From the NCBI RefSeq assembly GCF_004010195.1, contig NC_057751.1, forward strand, positions 4,435,246-4,479,400: a stretch of DNA of 44,155 bases. The letters run 5' to 3'. Within the stretch, counting starts at the first letter, position 1. Each line of letters begins with the position of its first letter. The position numbers were made by a program, and so were the translations under genes. Shown here piece after piece: positions 331 through 38,511 of this stretch. The notes beneath the pieces are model-generated. The model had not been told where the DNA came from. It did no database searches and saw only the letters and a program-made list of their open reading frames with translations. This DNA comes from Chiloscyllium plagiosum. Its lineage: Eukaryota.

Positions 331-422
331 TATTCCTGATGAAGGGCTTTTGCCTGAAATGTCGATTTTCCTGCTCCTTGGATGCTGCCTGAACTGCTGT
401 GCTTTTCCAGCATCACTCTAAT
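331..422 (+). mobile_element. Penelope terminal repeat with hammerhead-like motif, inverted relative to the adjacent ORF
   Basis: Near-identical to the 3' end of the Penelope copy at 38420-38511. Contains CTGATGA-A-GGGC-TTTT-GCCT-GAAA-TG-TC (336-363). Confidence 0.75.
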
Positions 423-429
423 CAAGATC

Positions 430-1050
430 CTGCCAGCATTTGGCCCATATCCCTCTAAACCCTTCCTATTCATACACCAATCCAAACACCTTCTAAATGA
501 TGTAGTTTTGTCCACCTCCACCACTTCCTCTGGCAGCCCATCCTATACACACACCACCATTTGCATGAAAAAGTTGTCCCTTAGCTCTGTTTTAAACCTT
601 TCCTTTCTTACTTAAAACCTATGCCCTCTCGTTTGGACTCCCCTACACTGGGACAAAGAGCTTGGTTTTCCACCCTATTCATGCCCATCATGATTTTATA
701 AACCAATAAGGTCACCCCTCAGTCTCTGACACTTCAAGGAAAATAGCCCCAGCCTATTCAGCCTCTTCCTATAGCAGCTCGGCAACATCCTTGTTAATTT
801 TTTCTTGAAGCTATTTGTTGAAGCTTAACAACATTTTTCATATGGCAGCAGGACCAGAACTGAATGCAGTATTCCGAAAGTGGCATAACCAATGTCCTGT
901 CCAGCCGCAACATGACCTCCCAACTGCTGTACTCAATGCGCTGACCAATAAAGGGAAGCATACCAAACGTCTTTTTCACTACTCTGTCTACATGAGACTC
1001 CACCTTTAAGGAGCTACCAATCTGCACTCCAAGGTCTCTTTATTCGGCAA
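430..1050 (-). mobile_element. CR1/HER1-like LINE 3' fragment, decayed
   Basis: ORF 794-1027 reads LRLDRTLVMPLSEYCIQFWS (CR1 RT C-terminus). Matches the reverse complement of 39640-40210. Confidence 0.85.
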
Positions 1051-1304
1051 GTTATTAGGTGCTGAGATTCATTGGTGAGAGACAGGCTTGTTGGTACTCA
1101 ATGACCTCGAAGAAGTTCTGTCTCTCCTGATATTGACAGCAACCACTGCAAAGCAGCAATGCACACTGGGCAAATGGGCAAGATATTGGCCCTTAAATCT
1201 TCAGGTTAAGGTTAAATAGAAATTGGTGTGTGTCCAAATCCAGATTGGAAACCATTAGCAAATAATGAGCAGAAAACACAAGACCCGATGACCACAAAAT
1301 CAAA

Positions 1305-1545
1305 TCCAAAAGAATTGCAGATGCTGTAAATCAAAATCAAAAATAAAAGTTGCTGGAAAAGCTCAGCTGGTCTGGCAGCATCTGTGGAGACAAATCAGAG
1401 TTAACATTTCAGATCTGGTGACCCTTCCTCAGAACTCAGACTTCCAGTTCTGAGTAAGGGTCACCAGAGTCCAAATTGTGAACTCGAATTTCTCTCCACA
1501 GATGCTGCCAGACCTGCTGAGATTTTCCAGCAACTTCTGTTTTTG
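1305..1545. mobile_element. Palindromic non-autonomous Penelope-derived element with two inverted hammerhead-bearing arms
   Basis: Arms at about 1340-1436 and 1446-1545 are imperfect reverse complements around a 9-nt spacer. They share the gatgctgcc-gacctgctg-ttttccagca tail with the PLE end at 38470-38500. Confidence 0.75.
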
Positions 1546-2269
1546 TAAAAAAAAGAGACAAATTGGTTTGTACTTCACCCATTCACTGCATGAACATACA
1601 AGTGTTTTTATGCTCCTTTGATTTTCCCTGAAATAGTGACTGAAGAACACCTGCAGATTGTAAACACTCCTGAATATGTAACTTCACATTGAATGACTTC
1701 TAACTAAGCAATCCACTGAACGAGGACTCTTTCACAACATTTACTGAGCTCTTCTTAAAGGGATGACATGACAAAGATATGTAGCTCCAAAATGGAACAA
1801 ATAAACCTGTATTCCATATGTAATGGGGTTTAATGTGTTCAGAACTATATTGAGAGTGCCATCAAAGCAGAAACTTGATTCCTCCTTTCCATTGAGGAAC
1901 GTAGTACATGTCACAGGGACAAAAACATTTCAACAAAGTATTTCATTGATTGAGTGCTACTGGATAAAGACCAGTTAATTCTTACACATTTGTTAACTCC
2001 AGTGCACTTCCCTTGCTTCCAATAGTAGCTGCCAAGATATACTGCCATACCAGTGAGACCCTCTGCACTTCCGATTTAAATTAATTCAACGTCTATTTTT
2101 ATGAAGCCTCTCAGAGCCAAGCTTCCTCCTTTCCTATTAGATTTTGACTCCTGATTAACAAGATTCCAGTGTAATGTCACACCTATTTGCACTGAAATCC
2201 TGGAACCCCCACCACTTCTTTACCATTCTGTGAGTATTCCCACACCACATGGACTGTAGGAGATCACCA

Positions 2270-2505
2270 TCATCAACTTTATTTCTCACTCAGAGGATGG
2301 TGTGTATGTGGAACAAGCTGCAGAGAAACTGGTAGAGGTGGGTACAATTACAACATTTAAAAGACATTTGAGCAGGTACACAAATAGGTAAGGTTTAGAT
2401 GGATATGGGCCAAATGCTGGCAAATGGGATGCAGTTCGGTTTTGGATATCTGGTCGGCATGGATGAGTTGGACCGAAGGGTCTGTTTCCATTCTGTAGGG
2501 CTCTA
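2270..2505 (+). mobile_element. CR1/HER1-like LINE 3' end
   Basis: Matches 40065-40295 (ggtacaattacaacatttaaaag...ggaccgaagggtctgtttcc). Confidence 0.85.
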
Positions 2506-3689
2506 TAATTAGAGAGGAGTGATAAATGCTAGCCCAGCCAATGCCACTGCCATACCAAGATCAACAACAATAAATAAAAGTGGTAACCTCAGCCCAGAAT
2601 CATATTGTCCTCATGATGGTGACAGCCAACTCAAATCTGTTTGGCCGTAACATGGCAGAAGCAGCATAGAGGCACGTGGAAAGCTTGCTACACACACTCA
2701 GTGAATGATTGACACGGCTGAGGGGATAAACTGGGTTACAATTGGTCCTCTGCACCAACCAGTTACTTCTCCAAGGTACAGGGCATTGAGACTCTTTTCT
2801 AGCCCCAGCTGGTTCAGTTCTTGTGCCCTTCATCTTTCCCCTGCAAATTCTCACCTCGCTAAAAGTTTATCAAGATTTGGTAGGTTAAAGGGAGTCCCAT
2901 TGTAAAGTGGTCTTTGTCCCTCTCCAGTAGTGCAGCTGCTTAGCAGCATTCAGTGTTAGTACTGATGGTCCAGTTTAATGCATCCTTAATTATATTCACA
3001 ACAGCTCTCACTCATTATGCAGTGGCTATTTGGATACAGGAGGCTTCTGACTCATTAGCTTCTGAATACAACTATAAGCTAATCACAGAACTGGGCTTCT
3101 TCTGATCAGTAGCCTGGAATTACAAGGCTTGTGTATTACTGGTGAGTCTGTGTACCAAACCTGGTATTCCCACTTCTCTCCCAGACACCCATACCACATC
3201 CTTAAGGATCAGATTGTCTATAATTGGTCAGATTGCCTTTTTGTAGGCCCCTCATTTCTCCAGGTTGAGTCTGAAATCTCTGCTGTAGTACAAACCATAG
3301 GAATCTGGCAGCAACCCTTGTCAGTCATAGTTTGCCTGTCAGTACTGTTGCCACTCACACCTCTCGACATTTTCAATTGGTCTGCTCACTGGGCTCTACA
3401 ACATCTGGGAGGCAAGGAACAGATTTTCTCTGTGAAATGCCATGAGTCAGGTTTTTAAATTCATTGGTTCAGGAAGCCTGGGACAGTTTGGCCCTTCATG
3501 AAGCAGTCAAACCCCGTTACCAATATAACATTCTCAAGTAGCACCTGGTTTGGCAGGGCACAAACTCCAACAGCAAGACAGAAATGGCTGAAATATTTAT
3601 TAGACAACACAAGCTTATTGTAATGGTGGAAATGGGGGGTGTCATTCAGTCTGTTCCACGAATCAGCCAGACCTTGTGGTTAGGTTGTC

Positions 3690-4150
3690 ATAGACTCATA
3701 GAGATGGACAGCACAGGAACAGACCCTTCAATCCAACTGGTCCATGCTGACCAGGTATCCTAAATGAATCTAGTACCTTTTGCCAGCACCCGGCCCATAT
3801 CCCTCCAAACCCTTCCTATTCATATACCCATCCAGATGCCTTTTCAAAGTTGTAATTGTACCAGCCTCCATCACTTCCTCTGGCAACTCATTCCATAAAC
3901 TGTCTGTGTGAAAATATTGCCCCTTACATCCCTTTTAAAATCTTCCCCTCTCATTTTAAAACTATTCCCTTGGGTTTTGGACTCCCCTACTTGGGGAAAA
4001 AGACCCGTTAATCTTTTCTGAACCCTTTCAAGTTTAACATCATCTTTCCAACAGAAGGATGATCAGAATAGAATGCAGTATTCCAAAAGTGGCTTAACTA
4101 ACGTCTTGTATAGCTGAAACATGACCTCCGTACTCTGATACTTGATGCAC
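3690..4150 (-). mobile_element. CR1/HER1-like LINE 3' fragment
   Basis: Reverse complement of the CR1 3' end seen at 39720-40300, with internal deletions. Confidence 0.85.
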
Positions 4151-4624
4151 TGACCGTAATTTGTCATTCAGCTCTATCTCCTCTCCACCGCCCAATTGGA
4201 CTCTACTCAGTTTGGAGGACCCCAGTAGATTCCTCTCAGGGCAGAGAGAGAGAGACCATTGCTGGTTTTCTATGGCTATCTCTATGACGAATTCTTCCTT
4301 GATCTGCCTATTTCTGACTTGAAGATCCCAGTATTCTTGCTCTCAGAGCAGAGAGAGTAGACTCTTTCTCTCACGAGTGTATGGAATCTCTTTACAGGCT
4401 TTCAAACACCTCAGTTGAAATTTTCCTGAATCTTAGACACAGCAACCAACAGTCTCCTGCTCTGAAGGCCTGGCAGTTATCCCTATGGGAGCACACTTAT
4501 GGCAGTGCCATTCAGGCAACAGAGAAATACTGCAAAACAACACCAGCAAAAGATATTTGAAGCTGAACCTAAGAAGTGCGAAAGTAAAAAGTCAGTTCAT
4601 CAGAAGAAACAGGCAGCAAACAGC

Positions 4625-5270
4625 ACCAGGGTCCATAGATTCAGAACAAGGGAGGCTATTTTGGAGCTGTCCAGGATTTCGGTTAGGCCACAGCTCCACA
4701 GTTCTGGTCACCACACTGTGGGAATGATCTGGAGGTACCAGTGTTGGATTGAGTTGAACAAATTTTTAAAAATCACACAACACCAGGTTATAATTCAACA
4801 GTTTTCTTTGGAAGTCCAAGCTTTTGGAGCACTGCTCCTTCACCAGGTAGCTAGTGTGATTTTTAACACAATAGGAGCGGGTGCAGAGGAGATTTACCAG
4901 GATGTTGCACAGGGCTGGAGTGATTCAGCTACCAAGAGAGACTGGGATACCCTGGGGGTGTTTTCCATAGTGCAGAGAGGGCTGGTCAGGAAGGGTGGGG
5001 ACTGATTTTATTGAGGTGTACAGAGTACTGTGGGACAGGGTGGATGAAGAGAACCATCTTCTCCCTAGTCAGAGAGGGACAGTCAATAATTAAGGAGTGC
5101 CATTCGAAAGCAAGGAGCATTGAAGGGGATTTGAGGGAAAGACTTCTCCCCCCCAAAAGGTGGTGGGCTGCCTAAAAAAAAGTTGTAGAGGCAGGAACAC
5201 CTGAAGGAGTGACCGCTTGAAAGGCCAATAGCAGACAAGGCTTGGGGAGGGGGGCTGGGAGAGAGTATTA
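4625..5270 (+). mobile_element. Old CR1-like LINE 3' fragment, interrupted at about 4735-4855 by a hammerhead-bearing repeat
   Basis: Decayed CR1 motifs such as gtgcagaggagatttaccaggatgttgc and ggggtgttttccatag. Confidence 0.65.
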
Positions 5271-5277
5271 GAATTGA

Positions 5278-5508
5278 TAACAAAAGAGAAAATGCTGGAA
5301 AATCTCAGCAGGTCTGGCAGCATCTGTAGGGAGAGAAAACAACTGACGTTTCGAGTCTAACTGAGCCTTACCTCCCTGTTTCTCCCTTTTTTTTTTAGCT
5401 TTCACAAAGGGTCAGCTCTTTTCTCTCCTTACAGATGCTGCTGAGATTTTCCAGCATTTTCTCCATTGGTTTCAGATTCCAGCATCCGCAGTAATTTGCT
5501 TTTATTAG
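5278..5508. mobile_element. Palindromic Penelope-derived element just upstream of the NEFL promoter, decayed
   Basis: aaaatgctggaaaatctcagca...gcagcatctgtagggagagaaaa (5290-5340) is mirrored by ttttctctccttacagatgctgctgagattttccagcatttt (5419-5460). Same family as 1305-1545. Confidence 0.75.
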
Positions 5509-5756
5509 AATTGGGTAGGTGGGGTAGGGTGTCGATGGACGGAAGGGCCTCTTCCTCCTGCGTGGAAGGCTGTCTGACTGTCTGGGATAAGCTGGCGAGG
5601 AGCAGCTGAGCTGGCTGCAGCTTCCCAGGCACGGTGTGGGGTGGGGGGTGGTGGCCAGATTTGGGAGGATGTATTGCAGTGTCAGGTGGGGAGGGAAGGG
5701 GAGGATCGTCAGAGCGCTGGGAGGGGTGGGGAGGGAGGGGGAGGGTTTGGGTCTGG

Positions 5757-5762: not shown

Positions 5763-5782
5763 TGGGGGGCGTGCAGCTCTCT

Positions 5783-5809: not shown

Positions 5810-5819
5810 AGCACCAGCC

Positions 5820-6845
5820 ATGAGCACCGCGAGCTACGAGTCGTACTTCCACAGGAGGCGCTATGGAGACAGCGCGGCGCCCAGGAGCTATGGAGCTGTC
5901 CAGCATTTCAGGAGCAACTTCGGAGGCAATGTCAAAGCGGTCTACAGCTCTTACTCCAGCCCGGCCTTCACCGCTAGGAAGGCCCACAGCATCTCGTCCG
6001 CCCTGGACACCTTCGACCTGAGCCAGGCGAGCGCCGTGAGCAGCGAGTTCAAGGCGGTGCGGACCCAGGAGAAGGCGCAGCTGCAGGAGCTGAACGACCG
6101 CTTCGCCAACTTCATCGAGAAGGTGCACGAACTGGAGCAGCAGAACAAGGTGCTGGAGGCCGAGCTCTCCCTGCTCCGCCAGAAGCAGGGCGGCCCGTCC
6201 CGCCTCAAGGGCATCTACGAGCAGGAGCTGCGGGAGCTGAGGCTGGCGCTGGACGACGCCCGCCACGAAAGGCAGGCGGCGCAGAACGAGCGGGACCACC
6301 TGGAGGACAGCCTGAAGAACCTGCAGGCTCGCTACGAGGAGGAGCTGCTGAACCGGGAGGACGCCGAGGGCCGCCTGATGGAAGCCAGGAAGGGCTCGGA
6401 CGAGGCGGCGCTGGCCAGGGCCGAGGTGGACAAGCGGATCGAGAGCCTGATGGACGAAATCGCCTTCCTGAAGAAAATCCACGAGGAGGAGATCGCCGAG
6501 CTGCAGGCTCAGGTGCAGTACGCCCAGGTGTCGGTGGAAGTGGACATGGGCAAGCCGGACCTCTCCTCTGCCCTGAGGGAGATCCGCTGCCAGTACGAGA
6601 AGGTGGCGGCCAAGAACATGCAGTCGGCCGAAGACTGGTACAAGAGCCGCTTTGCCGTGCTGGCCGAGAACGCCTCCAAGGACAGCGACGCGACCAGGCA
6701 AGCCCGGGACGAGGTGATCGAGTACCGGCGCCAGGTCAAAGCCAAGACCCTGGAGATCGATGGCGTCCGGGGAATGAACGACGCCCTGGAGAGGCAACTG
6801 CTGGAACTGGATGAGAAACAGGGAGGCGAGATCAGTGCCCTACAG
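5820..6845 (+). CDS. NEFL: Neurofilament light chain, exon 1 (head and most of rod, 342 codons)
   Basis: The ATG is in gccATG context. MSTASYESY... head, then DLSQ...[36 protein letters not shown]. Ends CAG|gtaagg, phase 0. Confidence 0.97.
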
Positions 6846-7089
6846 GTAAGGGGAGGGCGGAGGGGGCACACAGGTTCACCGAGAGAGTGATACACACAAC
6901 ACTCAAGGAGGGTGTGTGTGTGTGTGTGACACACTGACAGGACACAGGCACCTAGCCAATAGAGCCGAAACCTTCGCGCTTTTGGGAGGCAGAGTTACAA
7001 GGGATGAGAAAGGGTAACGGGGTGGGGTCACTGACCATCTTTCTCTCTATTTCCCTCCCCCCTCCCACCCCTCCATCCCATTCCCACAG

Positions 7090-7214
7090 GATGCCATTAG
7101 CCAGCTGGAGAATGAGCTGAGAACCACCAAGAATGAGATGGGCCGCTACCTGAAAGAATACCAGGATCTCCTGAACGTGAAGATGGCCCTGGACATTGAG
7201 ATCGCGGCGTACAG
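7090..7214 (+). CDS. NEFL: Neurofilament light chain, exon 2 (125 bp)
   Basis: cccacag|GAT GCC...; [44 protein letters not shown]|gtaagg. Not present in the ORF track. Confidence 0.97.
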
Positions 7215-8112
7215 GTAAGGAGTGACACCGGGAGAGGCCGCTGGAAACTCCCGAGAGCTGGGAATGTTCCCTCCCTGGGCGGACCGAGTGCCATGCGCCC
7301 TTTCACTCCAGAGCTGAGCCCCCCACCCAGTGACCGAGCGGCTCCTCCCCCTCCCCCAGCCCTGCATTGCACCAGTTGGGTGTGGCACAGGGTGGAGTAT
7401 AACTCCGGTCTGGCGCAGTCTTTCTGCAATCCTCGGCCTGGGCCAAGTATCTGTCTCAGCTTTTACAAGAGGACAGACCTGCAGGTTGAAAGATACAATT
7501 TCATTCGGGAAGGAGAGGTTTGGGATGGGCTGGGGGGGTGGTGCAAGACAGAGGCTAAGAGGACGTGATAGCCTCAATGCGTCAGATACAGGTTTACCTC
7601 TACTGTCACACACTACAACAGCTCCCCACCCCACCCACCCCCCACTCCCCATCATTCCCAACACTGATCCCTGTATCGGCCTTTCTCCCAACAGTGTCCA
7701 TTGGGTTTCAGAGGGGACAGGATTTGCGGAGTGTCTTTTGGAGGGGTTTTGTTCGTGAACAGCGAGAGCTAATGCCGTGAACAGAGTTAAAACTGACATT
7801 GGATACGGGTCAGTTCCACAATCAAAATACACCGAGTGTTTCCTGCGTAGAAAGCACATTCACCGGCGTAAGGACATCTCAAAAGGAAATCAAATGTAGA
7901 TGTTCATGCACAAGAATAAAATCTGCATTGCAGGGCTCCTGGGAAAGAGCAAGGGATTGACCCCCTTACTAAGCATTGGCATAGGCAGACAGGGCCAAAT
8001 CTTTGCACAAAGCCCGGAGGATTAAAAGGTAACAAGGTGCCAACACCTCGGAGCTGCAGTGCAGGTTGGGGAATGATCTTATCGTTGTTGTCCCTTTCTG
8101 TTCCGTTCTCAG

Positions 8113-8375
8113 GAAACTGCTGGAGGGAGAGGAAACACGCATCACCTACACCAACGTGGGCAGCATGATCAGCGGCTACTCTCAGACTGCTGCCGCCCCG
8201 GTGTATAGCCGCTCCAGCTACTCCCTTCAGAGTAGCGCGTACGGCCTGTCCAGCAGAGCCGGCCTGTACAGCTCCTATCCCAGCAGCAGCCAGGTGGAGG
8301 AGGAGCTGGTTCAGCAGACCCGCTCATTGGCTGCGCAGCTCCAACCTCCAGCAGACAAGGCGGAAGACATGGAAG
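8113..8375 (+). CDS. NEFL: Neurofilament light chain, exon 3 (rod end and tail a)
   Basis: ttctcag|G AAA CTG CTG GAG; KLLEGEETR...YSQTAAAPVYSRSSYSLQSSAY; ends GAA G|gtaaga, phase 1. Confidence 0.95.
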
Positions 8376-8664
8376 GTAAGAACCTCTCACCAGGCCAGCC
8401 GTTCTCTAAACCAGGTGCCAACTCAATGACTGGCACAACTGGGAGCCAGAAGGGATGGTCTTGAAGTGGCATTGGAGGGTGCCACTCCCACAGCAGGAAC
8501 TGGGCAGGGACCAGGTCTCAAATGAAATGTGAAACTCAGGTTCTTTCGAGTCCTGTGGCAGACATGAAAGGAAATGCCCCATTGGTCTTTCATAAGAGAT
8601 CAGGGCTACTTTCAGTCCTCTCCAGGGCCGAGATCTATCTCACAACAAGAACCATTGATACAGT

Positions 8665-9100
8665 CACAGAATCATAGAGATATACAACATGGAAACAGAC
8701 CCTTCGGTTCAACATATCCATGCTGACCAGAGAACCCGATCTAGTCCCACCTGCCAGCACTTGGCCCATATCCCTCCAAACCCTTCCTATTCATATACCC
8801 ATCCAGATGCCTTTAAAATGCTGTAATTGTACCTGCCTCCATCACTTCCTCAGGCAGCTCATTCCATACACATACCACCCTCTGTGTGTGAAGAAGTTGC
8901 CCCTTAGGTCTCTTTTATATCTTTCCCCTCTCACTCTAAACCTATGCCCCTCTGATTCTGGATTCCATTTGGCCCATATCCCACTAAACCTTACCTGTTC
9001 AAATTTTTTAAAAATCTTCTAATTGTACCTGCATCTACCACTTCCTCTGGCAGTTCATTCCATGTACAAATGACCCTGTGTGAAAAGTTGTGCCTCCCCA
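8665..9100 (-). mobile_element. Two tandem CR1 3'-end fragments in NEFL intron 3
   Basis: Reverse complement of the CR1 3' end. The block ttggcccatatccc...gtgaa-aagttg occurs twice (about 8757-8900 and 8966-9090). Confidence 0.85.
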
Positions 9101-9346
9101 ACCCAGTCCACAACAAAGCAAAGGTCAGGTTTAAACTGTAAGCATGTTTCCATGCTGTATATCTCTATGACTCTGTGACTGTATCAATGGTTCTTGTTGT
9201 GATGCTGTTTATGTTGTTGGGCACCAACGTTGACTCTCATGTGTTCATGATCTTCTGTCTGCAATGCAGTCTTCATTTAGACAATGCAATCTTCAGAGGG
9301 AACATGCTTTGCACCAAAATTCTATCTTGATTTTTTGAATTTGCAG

Positions 9347-9588
9347 GTGAAGAGGGGGAAGGAGGAGAAGAAAATGGTGAAGAGGCAGAAGCAAAGGAGA
9401 ATGGAGAGGAAGAGGAGGAAAAGGAAAATGGAGAGGAGGCAGATGAGGAAAAGGAAGATGAGGAGGAGGAGAGCGAGGAAGGAGGTGAGGCTGAAGGAGA
9501 GAAGAAAGAGGAAGAAGAGAGTGAGAAACAGGAAGAAACTGAAGAAAAAGGAAATGATGCTGATAAACAGAGTGCAGAAAAGAAGTAG
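9347..9588 (+). CDS. NEFL: Neurofilament light chain, exon 4 (Glu-rich tail b, TAG stop)
   Basis: tttgcag|GT GAA GAG...; GEEGEGGEENGEE...DADKQSAEKK*. The four exons total 1656 bp = 551 aa plus stop. Confidence 0.93.
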
Positions 9589-9979
9589 ACAGGCCAAAAA
9601 AGGTCAACAAGGTATTGAATTCAAAAAGTGGGTAAACTAACTCCAGCCATCCAATCAAATCTGAGCCAAAGATACAATACAAAGATGATCCAATGAAAGT
9701 TTATGCTTTATGTGTTAAGATTGACTCCTTAAATAATTTAAGAAAAAAACAAAGAAATGCTTGTGCAGATTGCAAACTTAATGATGTGTAAGCATGGTTA
9801 ACTTTTGAGGAATGCAAGCCATGTGGTGTACAGAAATTCTAAAGTACCTGGTTATATTATTGTATCATTATGCAGTCGTTGTAAAACAAGGATCAATGTG
9901 CAATTATCTAGAAAAGTAATGCAGGACAATATGATACAAGTTTGTCACAGGGTCAATCACAATGGATGGTGCAATCAAC

Positions 9980-13699: not shown

Positions 13700-16600
13700 G
13701 CAGAATGGCCCTTTGTAGAGCCTCCCACCCAACCACCTCCTCTAACCTTAAAGACCAGGGACATATCAGGTAAGCGTCTCTTCTTTTTGACTTTGTGACT
13801 AGGGGACTAGCAGGGATGGCAGTTCAGGGAGAACAATGTTCCTCCTGCATGATGTTTGAGGTGAGGAACGCCATTAGTGTCCCATCCAAGTACATCTGCA
13901 GGAAGTGCACCCAACTCTCACTCTTCCAAGACCGTGTTAGGGAACTGGTGTGGGAGCTGGATGAAATTTGGATCATTTGGGAGGCAGAGGCTGTGATAGA
14001 AAGGAGTTACGGGGAAGTAGTTACTCCGAGGCATGAATAAAGCTGGGTGACTGTTCGAAGGGGGAGAAAACAGTCAGTGGAGGGATCCCCTGTGGTTGTT
14101 CCCCTGAAAAACATGTATACCGTTTTGGATACTGCTGAGGACGATGACTTACCAGGGGTATGCAGTGGCACAGAGCCCGTCCCCGTTGCACAGAAGGGAC
14201 AGTGGAGGGATCCCCTGTGGTTGTTCCCCTGAAAACCATGTATACCGTTTTGGATACTGTTGAGGACGATGACTTACCAGGGGTATGCAGTGGCACAGAG
14301 CCCGTCCCCGTTGCACAGAAGGGAAGGAGGGAAAGGAGGAGAGTGTTAGTCATTGGGGACTCGATAGTTAGAGGCTCAGATAGAAGGTTTGTAGGGAATG
14401 AACAAGACTCGCGGTTGGTGTGTAGCCTCCCAGGTGCCAGGGTCCGTGATGTCTCGGATCATATCTTTGGGATCCAGAAGGGTGACCAGCCTCAAGTCGT
14501 TGTCCATGTAGGTACCAACGACATAGGTAGAATGATGGATAGGGATATAAGGCAGGATTTCAGGGAGTTAGGGTGGAAGCTGAGAGCGAGAACAAACAGA
14601 GTTGTTATCTCTGGTTTGTTACCCGTGCCACGTGATAGCGAGGCAAGGAATAGGGAGAGATATCAGCTAAACATGTGGCTACAAGGATGGTGCAGGAGGG
14701 AGAGTTTCAGGTTCTTGGATAATTGGGGCTCATTCTGGGGAAGGTGGGACTTGTACAAACAGGACGGTCTTCACTTGAACCAGAGGGGTACTAATATCCT
14801 GGGTGGGAAAATTGCTGGTGGTATTCGGGTAGGTTTAAAGTAGCTCAGCAGGGGGATGGGAACTGGAAGTGTTGCTGCATTGCACAGGAGGATGAGAGTA
14901 GGGAGGACAGGGACAGGATTTCAGGATCACAGGAATGTGCTGGCAGACAGTGAAGTGTTTTGAAGTGTGTCTACTTCAATTCCAGGAGTATCTGAAGTAA
15001 GGTAGGTGAGCTTGCAGCATGGATAGGTATCTGGGACCTCAATGTTGTGGCCATTTCAGAGACATGGATAGAGCAGGGTGAGGAATAGATGTTGCAGGTT
15101 CCAGGGTTTAGATCTTTCATTAAGAACAGGCAAGGCGGTAAAAGAGTGGGGGGGGGGGGGGGGGGGCATGGCCTTGTTAGTCAAGGATAGTATAACGGTG
15201 GCTGAGAAAACTTTTGATGAGGACTTGTCTACTGACGTAGTGTGGGCTGAGATTAGAGACAGGAGAGGAGAGGTCACACTGCTTGGAGTTTTTTATAGGC
15301 CTCCACAGAGTTCCAGGGAGGTGGAAGAGAGGATTAGCAAAATTATTCTGGGTAGGAGTGAAAGGAACAGGGTGGACATTATGGAGGACTTTAACTTTCC
15401 CAACATTGACTGGAAATGTTACAGCTCGAGTACGTCGGATGGATCAGTTTTTGTCCACTGTGTACAGGAGGGTTTCCTGACACAGAATGTCGAAGGGCCG
15501 ACAAGAGGGGAGGCCACACTGGATCTGGTGCTTGGTAATGAACCAGGCCAGGTGTTTAATTTAGTTGTAGGTGAGCACTTTGGATAGAGTGACCATAATT
15601 TAGTTACGGTTATTTTAGCGATGGAAAGGGATAGGTACATGCCACAGGCCAAGACTTATTGATGGGGCAAGGGCAATTATAATACGATTAGGAAAGAATT
15701 AGGATGCATAGAATGGGGCAGCAAAATGCAGGGGATGCAGACAATGGAAATGTGGAGCTGGTTTAAGGAACTGATATTGCGTGTCCTTGATAGGTATGTC
15801 CCTGTCAGGCAGGGAGGAAGTGATAAGGTAAGGGAACTGTGGTTTACTCGAGAAATTGCATCTGTTGTTAAGCAGAAGAAGGAGGCTTATGTGNNNNNNN
15901 NNNNNNNNNNNNNNNNNNNNNNNGTCTTTAGCAAATAGAATAAAGGAGAACCCTAAAGCTTTCCATAGGTATGTAAGGAATAAAAGGATCAATAGGGCCA
16001 GTCAAAAACAGTGGGAAGTTGAGTGTGGACCCTGTGGAAATTGGAGAGGGTGCTAAATGAACATTTCTCACAGTTTTCACTCAGGAAAAGGAGAATATTG
16101 TAGAGGAGAAGAATGAGGTACGAGATATTAGACAAGAAAGGATCAAGGTTAGTTACGAACAGGTATTATTAATTCAAGAAGGAGGGAAGGTAGACAAGTC
16201 CTCTGGGCTGGATGGGATTTATCCAAGGATTCTCTGGGAAGCTAGGGATGAAACAGCAGAGCCTTTGGCTTTGATATTTGAGTCGTCATTGTCTACAGAT
16301 TTGGTACCAGAGGACTGGAGGATTGCAAATGTTGTGCCCTTGTTCATGAAGGGCAGTAGAGATGATCCAGGTCAGTATAGACCAGTGGGCCTTACTTCTG
16401 TTGTAGGAAAGGTTTTGGAAAGGATTATAAGAGATAAGATTTGTAATCATCTAGCAAGCAAAATTTGATTTCAGATAGTCAACATGGTTTCGTCAAAGGC
16501 AGGTTGAGTCTCACAAACCTCATTGATTATTTTGAGAAGGTGACAAAGCAAGTAGATGAGGGTAGGGCAGTTGACGTGCTATACATGGACTTCAGTAAAG

Positions 16601-23177: not shown

Positions 23178-23278
23178 GGATCCTGATGAACGGATTTTTC
23201 TTGAAACGTCGATTTTCCTGCACCTCGGATGCCGCCTGACCTGTTGTGCTTTTCCAGCACCACACTCTCCACTCAAAT
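23178..23278 (+). mobile_element. Penelope-derived arm with hammerhead-like motif
   Basis: GGATC-CTGATGA-A-CGGA-TTTT-TCTT-GAAA-CG-TC-GATTT (23178-23215), followed by the same tail as 364-420. Confidence 0.75.
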
Positions 23279-23591
23279 CTTTCAATGCAACCTCTTTGTG
23301 GACTCGGGTTTTACCGATTGTAACTCAGCTGCGATAGGGGAAATAGACCGGGTCAAAGTATCCTTACAGCAGCATGTCACCACAATCGGAAAATGTCTCT
23401 TCCTGCTCACCTCTCTCTGTGAGTGGGGGTCCTTGTGTCCGCCTCCATTCTTCCCCACCCTATCACTTGCTGCTGGACTTACAGAGACCAGAGAGGCGGC
23501 CCGGGACCATTCCCCAGGATTCAGCGGGGCAGTGAATTGGACCGGGAATTCACAGGAAAAGAGAACCCGTTTGGGAGCACATCCAAATTCA

Positions 23592-24827: not shown

Positions 24828-25324
24828 TGGAGACTGTCATGAAGAGATGTCGCTGCAGTAAATGAAGTTTTTTCAAAAGAAAAATTCCCTTCGAAGAAAC
24901 ACACGTGAAAGACCAAATTGCTGCCGGTTTGTGAGATTATTAAAACAACAACAACAACAGAAATGAAGACATTCCGGGGGCAGGTGGGGGGGGGCAAAGT
25001 ACAGCCAACCTACACTTCTGCAGCCTGGGGACTGCGGACTGATTGTGAGATCTCCAAATGCTGGAGTTTTTGGGGGGAAGAAAATTTCCTCCAGACCGGA
25101 GCAGCGAATCCAAATTGTTGCTGCCAAGGGAAAGCCCCAGAAATTGCTGGAAAAGCTCGGCAGGTCTGCGCGGGGAGAAATCAGAGCTGCTCTGGGGACC
25201 TCAGCTCAGAACGAGCCTTGTTTGGCGAGGTGGGGNNNNNNNNNNNNNNNNNNNNNNNNNNNNNNNNNNNNNNNNNNNNNNNNNNNNNNNNNNNNNNNNG
25301 TGGGGGGGTGGGGAAGAGATCTAA

Positions 25325-28131: not shown

Positions 28132-29332
28132 TCACTCATGATCCTCCTCCTTCTTTATGACTGAGTGTGAGGTTTTCTCCACCGTCTTAGTAGACACTAT
28201 CGTCTCCTGGACCACCTCTTCTGTCTCCTCCATTGTCTGAGTTACCGTGACAGATTTGGTGATCTCCTTGATGTGTTTGGTCATCCCGTCATCATCATCA
28301 ATGACCTTCTGGATAGTCTTTGTTGCAGTCTTCATGTGGGAGATGATGTCAGAGTCCTCCTCCTTTGTGGGACTCTGGTCAACCCCATTGGAAATGATTT
28401 GCGGCTCTTCCTCCTTGTCCTTGGTGTCATCCCCTTTCTCTTCAATCTCTCCATTGATGGTTGTGCCTTCATCTTTTGACTTGGCTTCATCTTTTGACTT
28501 GGCTTCATCCTTTGACTTGACTTCATCCTTCTTTTCCTCAGCTTCTGGGGATTTCTCTTCTTTTGGTGATTTGACCTCCACTTCTATTTTGGCTTCCTCT
28601 TTCTGTGGTGATTTGACATCGGTTCCTGCCTCCTTGCCCCCATCAACTGTGTCGACCTTTTTCTCAGAAACGACCTTCTTATCGACTGCTTCCTCACTCT
28701 TCTTAGCATCTTCCTCTGCTCCTTCCTCTCCATTTTCTGTGGCTGTCTTTTCAGGCTCTTCACCAGCTTCTTCTTTCTTGGTGACTTCTTCCTCTTCCTC
28801 CTCCTCCTCACTTGCTTCCTTCCCCTGCTCCTCTGGCACAGCTTTTGATTCCTCCACCTTCACGCTTTCAATCTTCTCCTCGGCTTCAGTTTCTTCTGCC
28901 CCTTCCTGCTCCCCTTCTGCCTGGACAGCATCACCTTCTCTTTCACCTCTCTCTTCTTCTTCTTTTTCCTCCTCCTCTTCTTCCTCCTTCTTTTCCTCAC
29001 CCTTTTTTTCTGGTTGAGCCTGGACTGCAGTCTTGACTGTGGCCACAATGACCTCTTCCACTGCTTCCTCTTCCTCGGCTATGGCTTCACCCGCAGCCTT
29101 TTCCACTGCCTCAGATAGGTTCAGCTCCCCCAGTTCCGCTTTCTCGTCCTCCACTTTGGTTTCTTCAATGATCTCTTCCACGAATTTATGCTGCACTTTC
29201 ATCTTGGGGGCTTCTTTGGTTTTCTGCACTTTAGCGGGGGCTGTGGGCGTGCTCGGGGGTCGATAGGGGAAAGAGGGACCAGTGATGCTTCCAGAGAAAA
29301 TATACCTGGATTCTTCACCTTCCAACAGTTTC
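28132..29332 (-). CDS. NEFM: Neurofilament medium chain, exon 3 (rod end and tail, TGA stop)
   Basis: ctgtgcag|[48 protein letters not shown], Glu-rich segment, KSP motifs, and the NF-M-type C-terminus ITKSVTVTQ...VSTKTVEK. Confidence 0.97.
28467..28530 (-). repeat. 18-bp coding tandem repeat, about 3.5 copies (KSKDEA)
   Basis: The + strand unit cttcatc(t/c)tttgacttg(g/a) starts at 28467, 28485, 28503 and 28521 (partial). Confidence 0.9.
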
Positions 29333-30104
29333 CTGCACAGGGGTGGGGGGTGGGGAGAGACCGAGGGAGAGGTAGAGAAGACAGCTGTTATTAAACCCTT
29401 ACAATGGAATGAAGGATAGGCACCAGGAGCAGAAGAGGAGACTACATTACTTACTGAGCGTATTATTGCCTGGAAAGGGTCCTATGTAGTTTTGGGAGGA
29501 ACAGTCTCTTCCTGTGCTGTTAGATTCGCCAGTTGTATGACACCATTGCCCGTTACTGGGGCAAGAACGCCATCAGCCCATGGGAGGCTCCGAAGGGAGT
29601 GCCCCCCCAGAACAGAGCCATGGTTTGCATTGATCAGAGGCTGGAAAGGGCTTGGGGGGGGGGGTGGGGGGTGGGGGTGTTGTAGGGCAAGGGAATGGGA
29701 GCAGACTCAGAGAGAGCAACAGAGTGGTCAGAGATGGCTTCACATGATGGACTGGGCGGCACCACTCCCCAACCCCTCAGATCATGGCTGGGGGTGGGTT
29801 AACAGACTCGCTCGCTGCCGAGTGGCCTCAGCTATTTCAGGCAAAGGCGGTTGCCCTCCTTTGACGCGGGGTTTCAACTGACCGCACTGGAGCCGCACAG
29901 AGAAAGACCAGCCGTGCACCCACCCCCCTGTCCTGCTGCAGCCTCGGGTGGGGAGGGGGGGGGGTGTAAGGGAGGGCTCCCTGTGCCGCACTCCCATTGA
30001 GGACCCCCTCAATGTCACGCAATGGCTTGGTTTTTTTGTCCTCCCTGGAGGTGTCGCCACACCCTCCGCCCCTCTGGGACCCCCCCCCCCCCCCCCCCAG
30101 TTAC

Positions 30105-30229
30105 CTGTAAGCAGCAATCTCGATATCCAAAGCCATTTTCACGTTTAATAAATCTTGGTATTCCCGCAGGTGACGGGCCATTTCCCACTTGGTGTTGCGC
30201 AGCTCATTCTCCAGCTGTTGGACTGTTTC
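30105..30229 (-). CDS. NEFM: Neurofilament medium chain, exon 2 (125 bp)
   Basis: ttttag|[53 protein letters not shown]|gtaact. Not present in the ORF track. Confidence 0.97.
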
Positions 30230-30597
30230 CTAAAATGTTTCCCAGACACAGAGAGAGAGAGAGAGGAAACTCATCAGTAAACCGCCGGAGAGACACCCTC
30301 CAGGCCACAATGACAAGCGGGTTCCGGGACCGGAGAGTTCCCTGAGCTGGGCAGCTTTGGAGGACAGTTTCCCAAATCCTGCCCGGGCACGGGCGCTCCT
30401 GCTCCCGCGGGCACGCCCCAGCCACTTCCCCGCTCGTCCTCAGCCGAGCCCGAAGGTTCGACAACGGCAGGCGGACAGCGCGACACTTCAGGCGGGCACA
30501 CACCCAGCCCCCTGTCCCCGCTCCCGCCCCTTACCGAGGCGCTAAGATCGAAACGCGAGGGAGGCGGGGAATGGACCACTTCGGAGAGAGCTGGGGA

Positions 30598-30760
30598 AGA
30601 GAGACACACACACACACACAGAGCCACCCACAGAGAGAGAGACAGAGTGAGGCAGAGAGATAGAGAAACACACACAGAAAGAAACAGACAAAGAGAGAGA
30701 GATACAGAGAGACAGATAGTGATAGACAGACAGAGAAATAGACAGAGAGTGAGAGAGAGA
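30598..30760. repeat. Compound (CA)n/(GA)n/(GACA)n microsatellite in NEFM intron 1, next to an assembly gap
   Basis: Seen directly in the sequence. Confidence 0.9.
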
Positions 30761-31027
30761 NNNNNNNNNNNNNNNNNNNNNNNNNNNNNNNNNNNNNNNN
30801 NNNNNNNNNNNNNNNNNNNNNNNNNNNNNNNNNNNNNNNNNNNNNNNNNNNNNNNNNNNNNNNNNNNNNNNNNNNNNNNNNNNNNNNNNNNNNNNNNNNN
30901 NNNNNNNNNNNNNNNNCTGGTGGGAGGGGGTGGGGTGGGGGGGAATGGTGGGGAGATGCTGGAGGTCGGGGCAGGGGCTTGGAGAGGGAGCCCAGGGGCG
31001 GTCTTGGGGCGGCGGGGAGCTGCTGAC

Positions 31028-32068
31028 CTGGTAGTTGGACACATCGGCGTTGTGGCGGTCCTCGATGTCGCTGATCTGCCTCTCCAGGGACTCCTTGGTG
31101 CCCCGGACCGACTCCAGCTCGATGCACTTGGACTGCAGTTGGCGGCGGTACTCATTGATCTCCTCCCGGGCCGAGCGGATCGCGTCCTTGTTGAGCTCGG
31201 CCGCCTCGTTCAGCTTGGCGTAGCGGCACTGGAACCACTCTTCGGTCTGCTGCAGGTTCTTGGTCGAGTGGCCCTCAAGCTGCGAGCGGATCTCCTTCAG
31301 CGCCGAGCTCAGGTCGCCCTTGAGCGGTTCCTTGCGCTCCAGCGTGACCTGGGACGCCTGGATCTGGGCGAAGAGTTCGGCCAGCTCCTCCTCGTGGTTG
31401 GCCCGGAGGAAGGCGAGCTCCTCTTGCAGGGACTGAGCTTTCTTCTCCATCTCCAGCTTGATGAGCGCCGACTCCTCGGTCTCTTTCCGGAAGGCCCTGA
31501 CGTGAGCCTCGGTGTCGTCCCTCAGCCTGGCCTCATCCTCACAGCGTTCCCTGAGGCGCTGCAGGTCCTCCTCCAGGTGCTCGCTCTGCAGCTGCAGCAG
31601 CGCCTTGTCCTGGTTCACCTGCTCGATCAGGCTCCGCAGTTCCCTCAGCTCCTGCTCGTACACCTCCCCCAGCTGCCCGTGGCCGGCCTGCTTCTGCCGC
31701 TGAGCCTGAATCTCAGCTTCCAGCTCCTTGTTGTGCTGCTCCAGGTAGTGCACCTTGTCGATGTAGCCGGCGAAGCGGTCGTTCAGCCCCTGCAGCAGCT
31801 CCTTCTCGTTGCGGCTGCCGACGCCCCGGTAATCTCCGTTCAGACCGCTGGACTGACTCAGGTCCAGGCTCTCCGAGGAGCTGTAAGCGCGGGGAGCCTG
31901 CACCGCGCTCGCCAGGCGCCGGTAGGACGCCGAGGTGAGCACCGGCGCTGGTGCACTAACCCGAGACCACGGCTGAGGGCGAGAGGCGACCGCCCGGCTG
32001 CTGTAAGTCCGGCTCTCCAGCCTCCGGTAGGAGGAAGGACTGCTCACCGTCTCTAGGATGTAGCTCAT
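31028..32068 (-). CDS. NEFM: Neurofilament medium chain, exon 1 (347 codons)
   Basis: aag[19 protein letters not shown]...[12 protein letters not shown]...[34 protein letters not shown]; ends CAG|gtcagc. The three exons total 2367 bp = 788 aa plus stop. Confidence 0.97.
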
Positions 32069-32163
32069 CTTCAGCGGGGAGGGTGGATGGCTGTTGGTAG
32101 GGGAAAGGGAGGGGAAGATGTGTGTGTGTATATGCGTGTGCGAGCGGCCGGCCTCATCCTGTC

Positions 32164-34129: not shown

Positions 34130-34600
34130 GCATCGCAGTCACAGAACTATACAGCACGGAACAAGAACTCGTCGAGATATCGTCAATTAATCTAGTCCCA
34201 TTTGCTGGACGCTTCTATCCCTCTAAACCGTTCCTATTCACGACCCATCCAGATGCCTTTTAAATATACCAGCCTCCACCACTTCCTCTGGCAGCTCATC
34301 CCATACACACTCCACCCTCTGTGTGAAAATGTTGGCCCTTACGTCCCTTTTAAATCTCCCCCCCCCCCCCCCCCCCCCTTCACTTTAAAAGTGTGCCCCC
34401 GAGTTTCGGACTCCCCTCTCCTGAGGAAAAGACCTTGTCTATTTATCCTATCCATGATTTTATAAACCTCTATAAGGTCACCCCCTCAGCCTCCAGGGAA
34501 AACAGCCCCAGCCTGTTCAGCCTCTCCCTCTCGCCCGAGCCCTCCAACCCTGGCAACATCCTTGTCAATCTTTTCTGAACCCTTTCACGTTCCACCACAT
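34130..34600 (-). mobile_element. CR1/HER1-like 3' fragment
   Basis: RVQKRLTRMLPGLEG...ERLNRLGLFSLE on the minus strand. Confidence 0.85.
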
Positions 34601-35539
34601 CCTTGCCTGCAGCAGCGGGTCTTTGAGGATGGACCGGAGCAGGCCTGTGTTGGACTGAGCACTGAGCCATGGGTGTGCCCTCTGCTGCTGTGAAAGTCAG
34701 AGCTGGAAACAGTGAACTCTGTCTCCATTGGGTTCTGGTTCCAAGGAGCGGGGTTGAATGCACCCTCTGATGCATCCTCCCTGACTATGTCCTGATGCAG
34801 GATGTTTCAGTTTCTGAGAGCCCAAAGGGCTATTGAACATGAATGAGGTTCCAAACCTGCAGACTGTGCAGAGGGAGCTGCTGCTCTCGGTTCGATCCAC
34901 CTTCCCCGCACACATGTCTCCGGCCAGCTCCTCTCCCCGGGACAGGGCTCGGCCCACACTGGCTGTCTGAGCCGGGCCAGGCTGAACTGCTCCTCGGGAT
35001 CCCGAGCTCAGAGCGGGCTACAGTAGTTTAGTTCCCCTTCAGTACGTTAGACCGCGGTGGTTGGGAAAGAAAAATGCATGACTGGTCTTGGAGGGAGGGC
35101 AGGGTCCCAGACAGCAAGGAACAAAGACAGGTTGTTCTCTCCCATTGCTGCTGGTGGGATCTTGCTGTGCGCCAAGGGTTCGCTCACGGCCAGCGGCCCT
35201 GGGCTTTGGAGCCGCGGATCGGGAACCTCTGACGGTTCAGATCTCGGCGGCACCGTCTCCCAGGTGAGCGCTTCATGTCTGCCCTGAGTCCATAAGGCTG
35301 ACACAGTGTGTCTCACAGAGTACCAGCAGAAATCCCATCCGTTTGAACGGCAGCAACAGCTTGCGTGAGAAACCAAACCGAAATTGACCTTCATGTCTCC
35401 GTTAGCATAGACCTGCAAGCGGCAATTAAGGCCCAGGCTGGATTCCGAGCAGATACCCTCAAACACCATCAGGAGATGCTGATGGGAACTCAGTTATGAG
35501 TCACCTCCTTTTTGCAAACTGCACAGGCTGGAACATTAC

Positions 35540-35656
35540 TCGGAGAAAGTGGCGGCTGCAGAGGCTGGAGAGGCTGGTGCTGGAAAAGCACAGCCGGCCG
35601 GGCAGCATCCCAGGAGCTGGAGAATTGACGTCTCGGGCATAATCCCTTCATCAGGA
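35540..35656 (-). mobile_element. Penelope-derived arm with decayed hammerhead-like motif
   Basis: Minus strand: TC-CTGATGA-A-GGGA-TTAT-GCCC-GAGA-CG-TC-AATT, followed by the common tail. Confidence 0.7.
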
Positions 35657-35789
35657 TGATGCATGACTTGGAACATGACTCGAGCTAATAAGCTATTTAT
35701 TGTAACTTGTCAAGCTGGTTCTCGCCGAACAGACTGCAGAATTTTGAGAATCTGTTCAACACACAAAAGACTAAACGGACAGAACTCAT

Positions 35790-36210
35790 AATCTGGAACA
35801 AGAGGCCTTGCGTTTACTTATCACGACCTCAGGATGCCCAGCAGCGAATTAGTCACTTTTTAAAGCTGTTGGTACATGACGAAATGCAGCGCCAACTTGT
35901 GCAGCAAGATCCCACAGACAGCAGTGACAATAATTGTTCTTGTCTCTGTGATGTTGTTTTAAGGGTAAACATTGAGGGCAGGAGACAAGGAAAGGTCTCT
36001 TTCATTTTCTTTTTGAAATATTGGCCACCGAACCCTTTCCAACCGCCTGGGAGGGGGAGATGGGGCATCATTTTAACATGGTACTCAGAAGAAGGTACCG
36101 CCCAGAGTGCAGCACTTCCCCAGCGCTGCACTGAGGCAGCCAAGAGCAAGTGCAAATCTAAGTCCAAGCTAAGTCAAGTGTTGGCAGTGGGACATGAACC
36201 TACAACCATA
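35790..36210 (-). mobile_element. Old tRNA-derived SINE, family uncertain
   Basis: B-box-like ggttcatgtccc on the minus strand at about 36190. The internal blocks cagcaagatcccaca and agtgcagcact recur near 35155-35170 and 37066-37080. Confidence 0.45.
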
Positions 36211-36219
36211 CCAGGCACC

Positions 36220-36495
36220 TTTAGAACACAGTACATAGAACATTACAGCGCAGTACAGGCCCTTCAGCCCTCGATGTTGTACTGACCTGTGGAACCAATC
36301 TGAAGCCTTTCTCTCCTCAACTATTCCATTCTCATCCATATGTTTATCCAAGGACCATTTAAATGCCCTTAAAGTTGGCAGGCATGCCGTTCCACACCCC
36401 TATTACTCTCTGACTAAAGAAACTACCTCTGACATCTGTCCTGTATCTATCACTCCTCAATTTAAAGCTATGTCCCCTCGTGCTAGCCACCCGAG
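36220..36495 (-). mobile_element. CR1 3' end, similar to the tail of the 13700-17384 element
   Basis: MDKHMDENGIV on the minus strand. Reverse complement resembles 17100-17384. Confidence 0.85.
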
Positions 36496-36539
36496 GATGC
36501 ATTTACCAGATGCCTTATCTGTGACAATCTCTGCTGCTT

Positions 36540-36800
36540 TGTTATCCCTAGGTACTGTCCAGGCCTGAATGACACTGTTCAAAAGTCTTGTTAGACCCTG
36601 AGCTCATCCTCTGAACCCCGATGCTGCCCAGCAGTTCCATTCGACTGCCTGGCCCGGCACTTTCTCTGTCCATGTGCTGGTGAAGTGCCCAGCTGTTCCA
36701 ACAAGCTCTCCAATCTGAATGCTCTGCTGGGCAACCCCCCAGTTTCCACTTTGCAGAAATTCCAGCTCTTCAAAATTCTCATGCTGCAGTTCCTCCATCG
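36540..36800 (+). mobile_element. Highly decayed L2-like RT C-terminal fragment
   Basis: LNALLGNPPVSTLQKFQLFKI resembles the L2 motif NALLAGLP..TL.KLQLIQN. Confidence 0.45.
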
Positions 36801-37772
36801 ACTTATCTTTCTCTTTTACCTCCTCCAAAATAACAATCATCCCCCTCTGCAATCCTCAAAACCTGAATCCCATGTGGACTTCCCTAGTTCCTTCTTCCTC
36901 ACTGTTAGTGATGTTGCTTTGTGTTTTCGTAAATTCACTGTGGTAATGGGCAAAAACAGACTTGCTCACAATAATGTCCTGTTGTATACTCACCCATTAG
37001 TGTGAATGACATTGGCTCTGGAATGAATATGGTCATGATACACTTTCCTTCGACCTACCTACCTGACAGTGCAGCACTCTCTCTGTTCTCCATTCTCACC
37101 ACTATCTGGGGCAAGTCACAGCCCATTCCCCATTCTCACCAATCTCTGGGAAAAGAAGTTTCTCCTGAATTCTTTGGGGAATTTATGAGTGATACCCTGA
37201 TACACTTATGAGCCCCATTTCTGCTCTAGTTCTGAAGTGGAAATATCTTCTGTACACCTTTCCTATCAAAGACCTTCATAATCTTTGTGTTCTCTATGAG
37301 ATTATCCTCTGCATGTTGAAATGTTTCTGATGAGTGTTACTTAACAGGCTGATGCCATTCAGCAGTCCCATTTCTCAAACTGCCTCCCTATCTTTCTGAA
37401 GACATGGAGACCAGAATGTGGTACAGCCCACATTGCCCAGCTAAGGTTCTCTACATTTAATTCACTTCTCAGCTTTTCAGTTCTGTCCCTTGAGAAATGA
37501 GGCTGGTAGGTATAGAGAATGCTGGATAACTAAAGAAAGTGAGCGTTTGGTTAAGAAAAAGAAGGAAGCATATGTCAGGTATGGACAGGAGAGATCGAGT
37601 GAATCCTTAGAAGAGTATAAAGAAAGTAGGAGTGTACTTAAGAGAGAAATCAGGAGGGCAAAATGGGGACGTGAGATAGCTTTGGCAAATAGAATTAAGG
37701 AGAATCCAAAGGGTTTTTACAAATACATTAAGGACAAAAGGGTAACTAGGGAGAGAATAGGGCCCCTCAAAG

Positions 37773-38511
37773 CTACCTCCAAATGGACCCCACCACCAAG
37801 GATATATTTCCCTCCCCTCCCCTATCAGCATTTCGTAAAGACCTCTCCCTCCGTGACTCCCTCGTCAGATCCACACCCCCCACCAACCCAACCTCCACTC
37901 CCGGCACCTTCCCCTGCAACCGCAGGAGGTGCAAAACTTGCGCCCACACCTNNNNNNNNNNNNNNNNNNNNNNNNNNNNNNNNNNNNNNNNNNNNNNNNN
38001 NNNNNNNNNNNNNNNNNNNNNNNNNNNNNNNNNNNNNNNNNNNNNNNNNNNNNNNNNNNNNNNNNNNNNNNNNNNNNNNNNNNNNNNNNNNNNNNNNNNN
38101 NNNNNNNNNNNNNNNNNNNNNNNNNNNNNNNNNNNNNNNNNNNNNNNNNNNNNNNNNNNNNNNNNNNNNNNNNNNNNNNNNNNNNNNNNNNNNNNNNNNN
38201 NNNNNNNNNNNNNNNNNNNNNNNNNNNNNNNNNNNNNNNNNNNNNNNAATTCAGCACCGCCTTCCTAACCTGCAATCTTCTTCCCGACCTCTCCGCCTCC
38301 ACCCCAGTCTGACCTATCACCCTCACTTTGACCTCTTTCCACCTATCACATTCCCGACGCCCCTCCCCCAAGTCCCTCCTCCCTACCTTTTATCTTAGCC
38401 TGCTGGACAAACTTTCCTCATTTCTGAAGAAGGGCTTATGCCCGAAACGTCGATTCTCCTGTTCCCTGGATGCTGCCTGACCTGCTGCGCTTTTTCAGCA
38501 ATACATTTCCA
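37773..38511 (+). mobile_element. 5'-truncated Penelope-like element with an 11-bp target-site duplication
   Basis: IFPSPPLSAFRKDLSLRDSLVRS...GTFPCNRRRCKTC is the PLE linker Cys motif before GIY-YIG; the nuclease region falls in the N gap. GCCCCTCAAAG occurs at 37762-37772 and 38512-38522. Confidence 0.88.
38420..38455 (+). ncRNA. Minimal type I hammerhead ribozyme-like motif at the Penelope 3' end
   Basis: ATTT-CTGAAGA-A-GGGC-TTAT-GCCC-GAAA-CG-TC-GATT. The core is intact, helix II is a perfect 4 bp and the cleavage triplet is GUC. Helix I is weak. Confidence 0.65.

Follow-up and report, generated by a model that had tools for sequence, protein, structure and literature searches.

Dispersed hammerhead motifs in Chiloscyllium plagiosum as a possible fossil record of the Penelope retroelement cycle

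Minimal hammerhead ribozymes (min-HHRs) have been described in the pseudo-long terminal repeats (pLTRs) of metazoan Penelope-like elements (PLEs), including Xena, Poseidon and Neptune elements of fishes, coelacanth and Xenopus, and the link between ribozyme and retroelement is established by that work (Cervera and de la Pena 2014, PMC4209133). No shark is named in the main text or searchable supplement of that survey, and no paper devoted to shark PLE hammerheads was found in the open-access literature; a whale-shark preprint describes expanded Penelope-like elements in whale-shark introns. Within the PLEs, a CX2-5CxxC linker preceding the GIY-YIG endonuclease (EN) marks the Neptune clade and is common to Nematis (Craig 2021, PMC8557442). 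For PAc, a Poseidon element of the green anole, both DNA strands are reported to be cut and extended from two internal reverse transcriptase (RT) starts that bound a tail, with uncleaved RNA as the main substrate and a hammerhead that is protein-assisted and dispensable in vitro (Frangieh 2024, PMC11167929). Here we compare with these systems a set of hammerhead motifs in the shark Chiloscyllium plagiosum, found in a 44,155-nt stretch of contig NC_057751.1 (positions 4,435,246 to 4,479,400; hereafter the window) that forms a neurofilament locus.

Scanning the window with a descriptor that required CUGANGA, at least 3 of 4 pairs in helix II and GAAA-NN-UH recovered five intact cores, at 331, 1399, 22790, 23178 and 38420, compared with a mean of 0.075 and a maximum of 2 in 40 dinucleotide shuffles. 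They are exactly the five listed in an earlier note on this DNA, all nine of whose motif stretches were found in place. With one core mismatch allowed there were 8 matches (mean 1.5, maximum 5 in shuffles), and a shared downstream word matched 8 times against 0.45 expected, one of these probably by chance. Profile search assigned the four copies previously described as core-mutated to the families (E 2e-24 to 4e-14) and also yielded two further copies (5406-5462, + strand; 25138-25211, − strand) and a total of 11 in 44 kb, five in family A, five in family B and one in family C. The motifs resemble published min-HHRs in their type I core, palindromic 15.2-16.2 positions in place of a true helix III, bulged base after A9 and G10.1-C11.1 pair, as well as in forming several families per genome in which most copies are single and truncated and some form opposite-strand pairs (Cervera and de la Pena 2014). 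No Rfam hammerhead family matched the window at E≤10 (7 weak unrelated matches), and Pfam searches of short translated pieces gave nothing informative.

Two window copies, at 331 and 38420, remain attached to coding sequence of their element and lie between target-site duplications. The first (331-426, +) consists of a family-A hammerhead and downstream pLTR with a short end, adjoining an open frame for a Penelope-like RT N-terminus with a DKA/DKG-type motif (1-327, −); this copy is 5'-truncated and runs into an assembly gap of 2.2 kb left of the window. The best 150 of 13,612 genome candidates for this frame scored as matches. A same-sense hammerhead lies beyond the gap (locus L111:7759, −), and a 14-bp duplication at 431-444 is repeated at L111:7616, to the left of the long arm with the tail. 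Together, the RT frame, the hammerhead beyond the gap and the framing duplication identify the motif at 331 as a truncated element's inverted 5' arm. The second is a young family-A copy bounded by an 11-bp duplication (37762-37772 and 38512-38522). It comprises an RT-EN linker coding piece with a CX4CxxC motif (37773-37951, +), an assembly gap (37952-38247) and a 3' pLTR with a short end (38248-38513, +) containing the hammerhead at 38420-38455, with a predicted cut after 38451; this pLTR has 40 scored genome matches at 97-100% identity.

The order of parts in a complete element is seen in a gapless 3.5-kb copy (L138), which carries an inverted arm, RT, CX4CxxC linker, GIY-YIG with CCHH and a 3' hammerhead in succession. 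Its coding sequence is interrupted by frameshifts and stops; Pfam recognized the RT (PF00078, E 2.6e-7, above cut-off) and placed the GIY-YIG domain below cut-off (E 0.0055). Homologs of the element RT list PF00078 together with PF01541, the nearest named ones being carpet-shark proteins (82-90%), and GIY-YIG remains also lie upstream of the pLTR in families B, C and D. A genome search with PF01541 gave 1 match of 150 scored and is too insensitive for counting elements. Taken together, and as judged from sequence features, the motifs are very probably minimal type I hammerhead patterns located in the pLTRs of three endonuclease-bearing PLE families. The identification as PLE min-HHRs and the minimum of three families, both proposed earlier, are thus borne out by the core, the helices and the RT/GIY-YIG linkage, with A, B and C all present in the window and a fourth family, D, elsewhere in the genome. 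That the motifs are chance matches or tails of CR1/L2 long interspersed nuclear elements (LINEs) is extremely improbable: several copies do lie inside LINE sequence, but their own duplications cut it, the count is 5 against 0.075 expected, and the motifs are linked to GIY-YIG sequence.

The CX4CxxC linker is present in families A and C and absent in D; by this criterion, A and C would be of Neptune/Nematis type and D of Penelope/Poseidon type. The family A frame opens at an ATG within the pLTR, after the predicted cut site, and runs for 142 codons. In PAc, too, the hammerhead overlaps the start of the open reading frame (ORF) and the cut site shows no reads (Frangieh 2024). Families A and C differ from PAc in carrying the linker and in having an ORF that starts after the cut site. 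Family D is PAc-like, with an ATG inside the core, a U bulge and a longer helix II. Family D occurs at 26 copies/Mb, none of them in the window, and was seen at L065, L078, L152, L163, L111:594 and other loci, with head-to-head spacings of 180-875 nt. Family C has a (CA)-rich tract between the end of the endonuclease and the pLTR (L212-L234).

Abundance was estimated from 120 ten-kb stretches at preset round positions on large scaffolds, with 1,141,122 called bases and small unplaced contigs outside the sample. They contained 391 copies (A 208, B 99, C 54, D 30), or 343 copies/Mb (bootstrap 299-387), of which 128 had an intact core (92-133/Mb), giving an estimated 1.0-1.3 million copies per genome and 0.31-0.45 million with an intact core. 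The sampled density of one copy per 2.9 kb exceeds the earlier estimate of about one per 5 kb and upholds the claim of a very high copy number. For scale, about 380,000 intact cores are estimated here, against about 4,000 in coelacanth and 9,000 in Xenopus, although the methods differ (Cervera and de la Pena 2014). None of the 128 intact cores had an intact same-family, same-strand partner within 500 nt, and 18 had one within 4 kb, a figure subject to edge loss in stretches of 10 kb. Dimer cleavage in cis by dispersed copies is therefore unlikely.

The arrangement of these copies follows simple rules. Family A 3' ends fall into two classes, at about +88-95 and +125-130 after C3 (about 90 and 126 nt), and corresponding paired classes exist in families B, C and D. 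About a third of the sampled copies (142 of 391) form 71 same-family head-to-head pairs within 60 nt, or about 62 hairpin-forming pairs per Mb. Among 43 family A pairs, 35 combined a long with a short end, 6 a long with an unassigned end, and one each was long+long and short+short; in family C, 12 of 13 were long+short and 1 was unassigned. Thus 47 of the 49 assignable A and C pairs had one tailed and one untailed arm (47 vs 2, P 4e-12). Among pairs with both ends assigned, exact flank repeats of at least 8 nt framed 22 of 37 in A and 7 of 12 in C, compared with 0.7% (A) and 0% (C) in 300 mismatched pairings; the repeats are AT-rich (69-75% vs 59%). The two end classes and the flanking duplications indicate that each palindrome represents a single insertion whose two 3' ends face outward. 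Several seemingly solo copies retain a short remnant of a second arm, and there was no association between long or short end and upstream extension (12 vs 13). This matches the Penelope architecture of an inverted 5' pLTR, 8-10-bp duplications and a 30-40-nt tail at one end (Arkhipova 2013, PMC3846280; Craig 2021). Unlike published Penelope insertions, many of those described here have nothing left but the two pLTR arms (71 pairs in 1.14 Mb), which makes the rules countable.

Two such palindromes lie in the window. In the first, a tailed family-B hammerhead arm (1300-1436, −) faces an untailed arm whose core is mutated at G8 and G12 (1446-1548, +), and the whole (1300-1548) is predicted to fold as a single hairpin of −143 kcal/mol. 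The second, also of family B (5266-5513), joins an arm at 5282-5378 (−) to a tailed arm at about 5384-5502 (+) between 11-bp duplications (5266-5276 and 5503-5513); its predicted fold is a long hairpin of −90.5 kcal/mol.

The earlier note had proposed a largely non-autonomous system, a view that the insertions do not support, because the short copies are stumps of RT/GIY-YIG-coding elements and the palindromes have varied centers, with no single amplified unit. In one form of this proposal, the stumps would be a family like short interspersed nuclear elements, miniature inverted-repeat transposable elements (MITEs) or retrozymes, amplifying itself from short copies by means of active ribozymes. 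Such a family might explain why stumps outnumber coding bodies by about 100 to 1 in RNA read depth, truncated copies that keep a promoter could be sources in trans, and non-LTR retrozymes, which are non-coding, hammerhead-bearing and PLE-related, are reported in one chondrichthyan (Cervera 2020, PMC7229834; Li 2026, bioRxiv 10.64898/2026.07.22.740005). However, palindrome centers differ from pair to pair in position (about −87 to +57 nt) and sequence, and among 73 listed pairs there was no common center, so that a MITE-like family was rejected. Retrozymes are head-to-tail tandem repeats, whereas the copies here are solo or head to head: same-strand neighbors within 20 nt numbered 0, against about 70 head-to-head. 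A non-LTR retrozyme was rejected, as the 128 intact cores included no head-to-tail tandem (500 nt) and the targeted loci gave one two-unit case of 327 nt with a mutated first core. Stumps that start at −4 also lack upstream promoter words, and their decay is neutral. We consider a self-amplifying family improbable, and the short copies appear to be mostly by-products of a known kind of element.

A few internally deleted, non-coding derivatives do exist, and count in favor of such a family. L160 (5050-5870, −) has three hammerheads, arranged as an inverted arm, a direct pLTR, about 520 nt of ORF start and a 3' pLTR beginning 8 nt before C3. L116 (6716-7130) and L147 (about 2755-3100, −) have in common a partial tandem of 327 nt at the 3' end of the element, with an identical mutated first core; this deleted derivative comes near the mean retrozyme unit of 363 nt described for the chondrichthyan (Li 2026).

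Stem variation was examined between and within families. At the family level, 44 of 50 stem pairs were intact compared with 27.6 in shuffles, and 0 of 20,000 shuffles reached 44, although the shuffle ignores kinship and rests on five groups, which tempers its support for a maintained fold. Compensatory changes between families were found at 2.1-1.1 (UA/CG/AU), 2.2-1.2 (UA/AU/CG), 10.3 (GC/AU/CG) and 15.2-16.2 (CG/GC). Within families, variation is neutral CpG decay. TG and CA products were similarly frequent in family A at C11.1-G12 (26:30), 15.2-16.2 (27:38) and C17-G1.1 (29:24) and in family C (12:9 and 13:11), and in family A changes that destroy the catalytic G12 were as frequent as harmless ones (30 vs 26). 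The covarying stems reported earlier therefore hold between families and not within them, and the change of GCCC to GCCU that had been read as covariation reflects the same CpG decay as the AUGU variants found at 331, 1399 and 22790, where helix III had been given as ACGU. GGAUC/GAUUU, previously taken for helix I at 23178, does not stand as a family stem, since alignment with other copies begins only 2 nt before C3 and GGAU falls outside the aligned element. Covariation between families combined with neutral decay within them suggests that the fold is maintained in replicating master elements and not after insertion.

Transcription was surveyed in one polyA single-cell library, of which about 2% was read and whose type cannot show cleavage or start site. 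Of 12.96 million records read, 1,197 matched the repeats (1,439 in a second comparison), on both strands; 95-98% of matched reads continue into unlike sequence, and depth over stumps was about 100 times that at the ORF start. This pattern fits passenger transcription. Heterogeneous loose read ends at 38420 (−4) are an independent sign of the junction there. The commonest differences of reads on the repeats (compared with L160) were A>G and T>C; with many copies mapping, these could be read as editing only against DNA of the same individual. The presence of copies in polyA RNA on both strands, together with the density of hairpin-forming pairs, might suggest that many dispersed copies have been co-opted by the host, to act as working ribozymes or as RNA hairpin signals. 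We regard this as very unlikely, given the continuation of reads into unlike sequence, the predicted burial of the motif in duplex within palindromes, and the equal frequency of core-destroying and harmless CpG changes, an average that could hide a few co-opted copies. Host selection on the dispersed copies was rejected on the grounds of neutral CpG decay.

The 5' ends of the stumps bear on where the template RNA begins. From 212 aligned family A copies, 5 window copies and 30 beside gaps or locus ends were removed, and 60 of the remaining 177 ended at −5 to 0, compared with 4 at +27 to +29 and 13 at +27 to +35, around the predicted cut site at +28; short copies are under-detected, so that the few ends at the cut site denote rarity, not absence. 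Copies at least 92% like their reference gave the same pile-up (26 of 75 at −5 to 0, 2 of 75 at +27 to +29), which limits an artefact of missing subfamily references. In family C, 21 of 45 ends fell at −12 to 0, and in family B 28 of 91 at −9 to 0, although B has three old references and carries little weight. Of 19 long C copies, 14 carry TATAAA at −38/−40, and of 3 long B copies 2 carry it at −33, with TCAGTT at −6; in both families TATAAA stands 29-30 nt upstream of initiator-like words, and the known spacing rules for TATA boxes and initiators were used in reading these as start sites. TATA/initiator words and first codons inside the pLTR are also part of the published Penelope architecture (Arkhipova 2013; Craig 2021). 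On this sequence evidence we lean slightly toward reading the 5' pile-up as a mark of transcription start just before the core, not of the ribozyme cut site.

The dispersed copies are therefore likely to be neutrally decaying insertion stumps, made when the element enzyme primes reverse transcription of uncleaved RNA at both ends of a staggered cut. Each DNA strand would prime at one of two internal start sites, as described for the anole element, where two such starts likewise bound the tail and both strands are extended (Frangieh 2024). Synthesis of each cDNA would continue as far as the RNA 5' end, at a TATA/initiator start lying 4-8 nt ahead of the core, and head-to-head joining of the two cDNAs would follow. 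A role for the ribozyme would be confined to the RNA of master elements, probably as a dimer or with protein help, and would not extend to the scattered copies. As a whole, we tentatively propose, at somewhat less than even confidence, that a fossil record of the Penelope cycle is preserved in this genome in a million copies: two-ended priming, almost always one per internal start site, on uncleaved RNA that starts 4-8 nt before the hammerhead, in which Neptune-type families shed stumps and about 200,000 hairpin palindromes and the Poseidon-type family does not, and in which the hammerhead may inactivate or process the RNA's own 5' end instead of making template.

Several observations weigh against this proposal. 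None of 40 targeted loci had an intact full-length ORF (longest gap-free frames 250-482 aa), and assembly gaps interrupt most long copies. Many arms end inside the core or far upstream of it, and a single insertion can have two arms that both reach beyond −4. The polyA library showed no pile-up of read starts or ends. In the anole system the start site is alike on both strands, and the rule of one long and one short end is left unexplained (Frangieh 2024). Family D had 0 of 21 ends at −12 to 0 despite TATA-like words at −46 to −53, and at the TATA position family A has TTTATC/CTTATC (−35 to −37 in 77 of 93 long references, a set that includes many near-identical young copies chosen by search), not TATAAA. 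The absence of a canonical TATA box in family A would also suit an alternative in which the elements are the same and the 5' pile-up arises from RT stalling or template switching at the folded hammerhead, or from self-priming on an antisense template. Ends are spread from −12 to +10, junctions often lie within the self-complementary core, and junction palindromes have been read as self-priming (Arkhipova 2013). Against stalling, the edge moves with the TATA box, from B (box at −33, ends near −2 to −6) to C (−38/−40, ends out to −12), and family D has the same core and no pile-up. We consider this alternative less likely than not.

Five further window copies remain. The family-C hammerhead (4724-4856, −) has a tail, a core mutated at A6 and G12 and an AGCU helix III, and starts about 10 nt before C3. 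Family A is represented by a decayed stump with an intact core whose first helix I pair is lost (22747-22825, −; A-A in copy 22790), a stump with a damaged helix II (23178-23280, +; C-U mismatch at 10.1-11.1) and a stump with A14>G in the core (35575-35657, −), the last two starting 2 nt before C3. A family-B-like remnant at 25138-25211 (−) had been overlooked earlier.

Around these copies, the window contains convergent neurofilament genes at 5820-9640 (+; Pfam Filament shown for this one) and 28132-32070 (−), which we take to be light-chain-like and medium-chain-like, respectively. A TATA word at 5757 lies about 250 nt beyond the end of the palindromic insertion at 5266-5513. LINE 3' fragments, presumably of CR1/L2 type, are numerous (429-950, 3687-4155, 8662-9080, 21741-22033, 34205-34604 and 39679-40304), and two hammerhead-bearing insertions sit inside such fragments. 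A LINE-like remnant at 14021-17300 combines frames resembling esterase, endonuclease and RT with a direct repeat of 125 nt (14075-14324).

The copy number in this genome makes the Penelope cycle and the role of its hammerhead countable. Strict pairing of long and short ends, uncleaved templates, a candidate start site and the contrast between clades are all within reach of the published in vitro system. A warning also follows, since in genomes of this kind to count hammerheads is to count dead repeats; the part worth keeping is the set of countable insertion rules.

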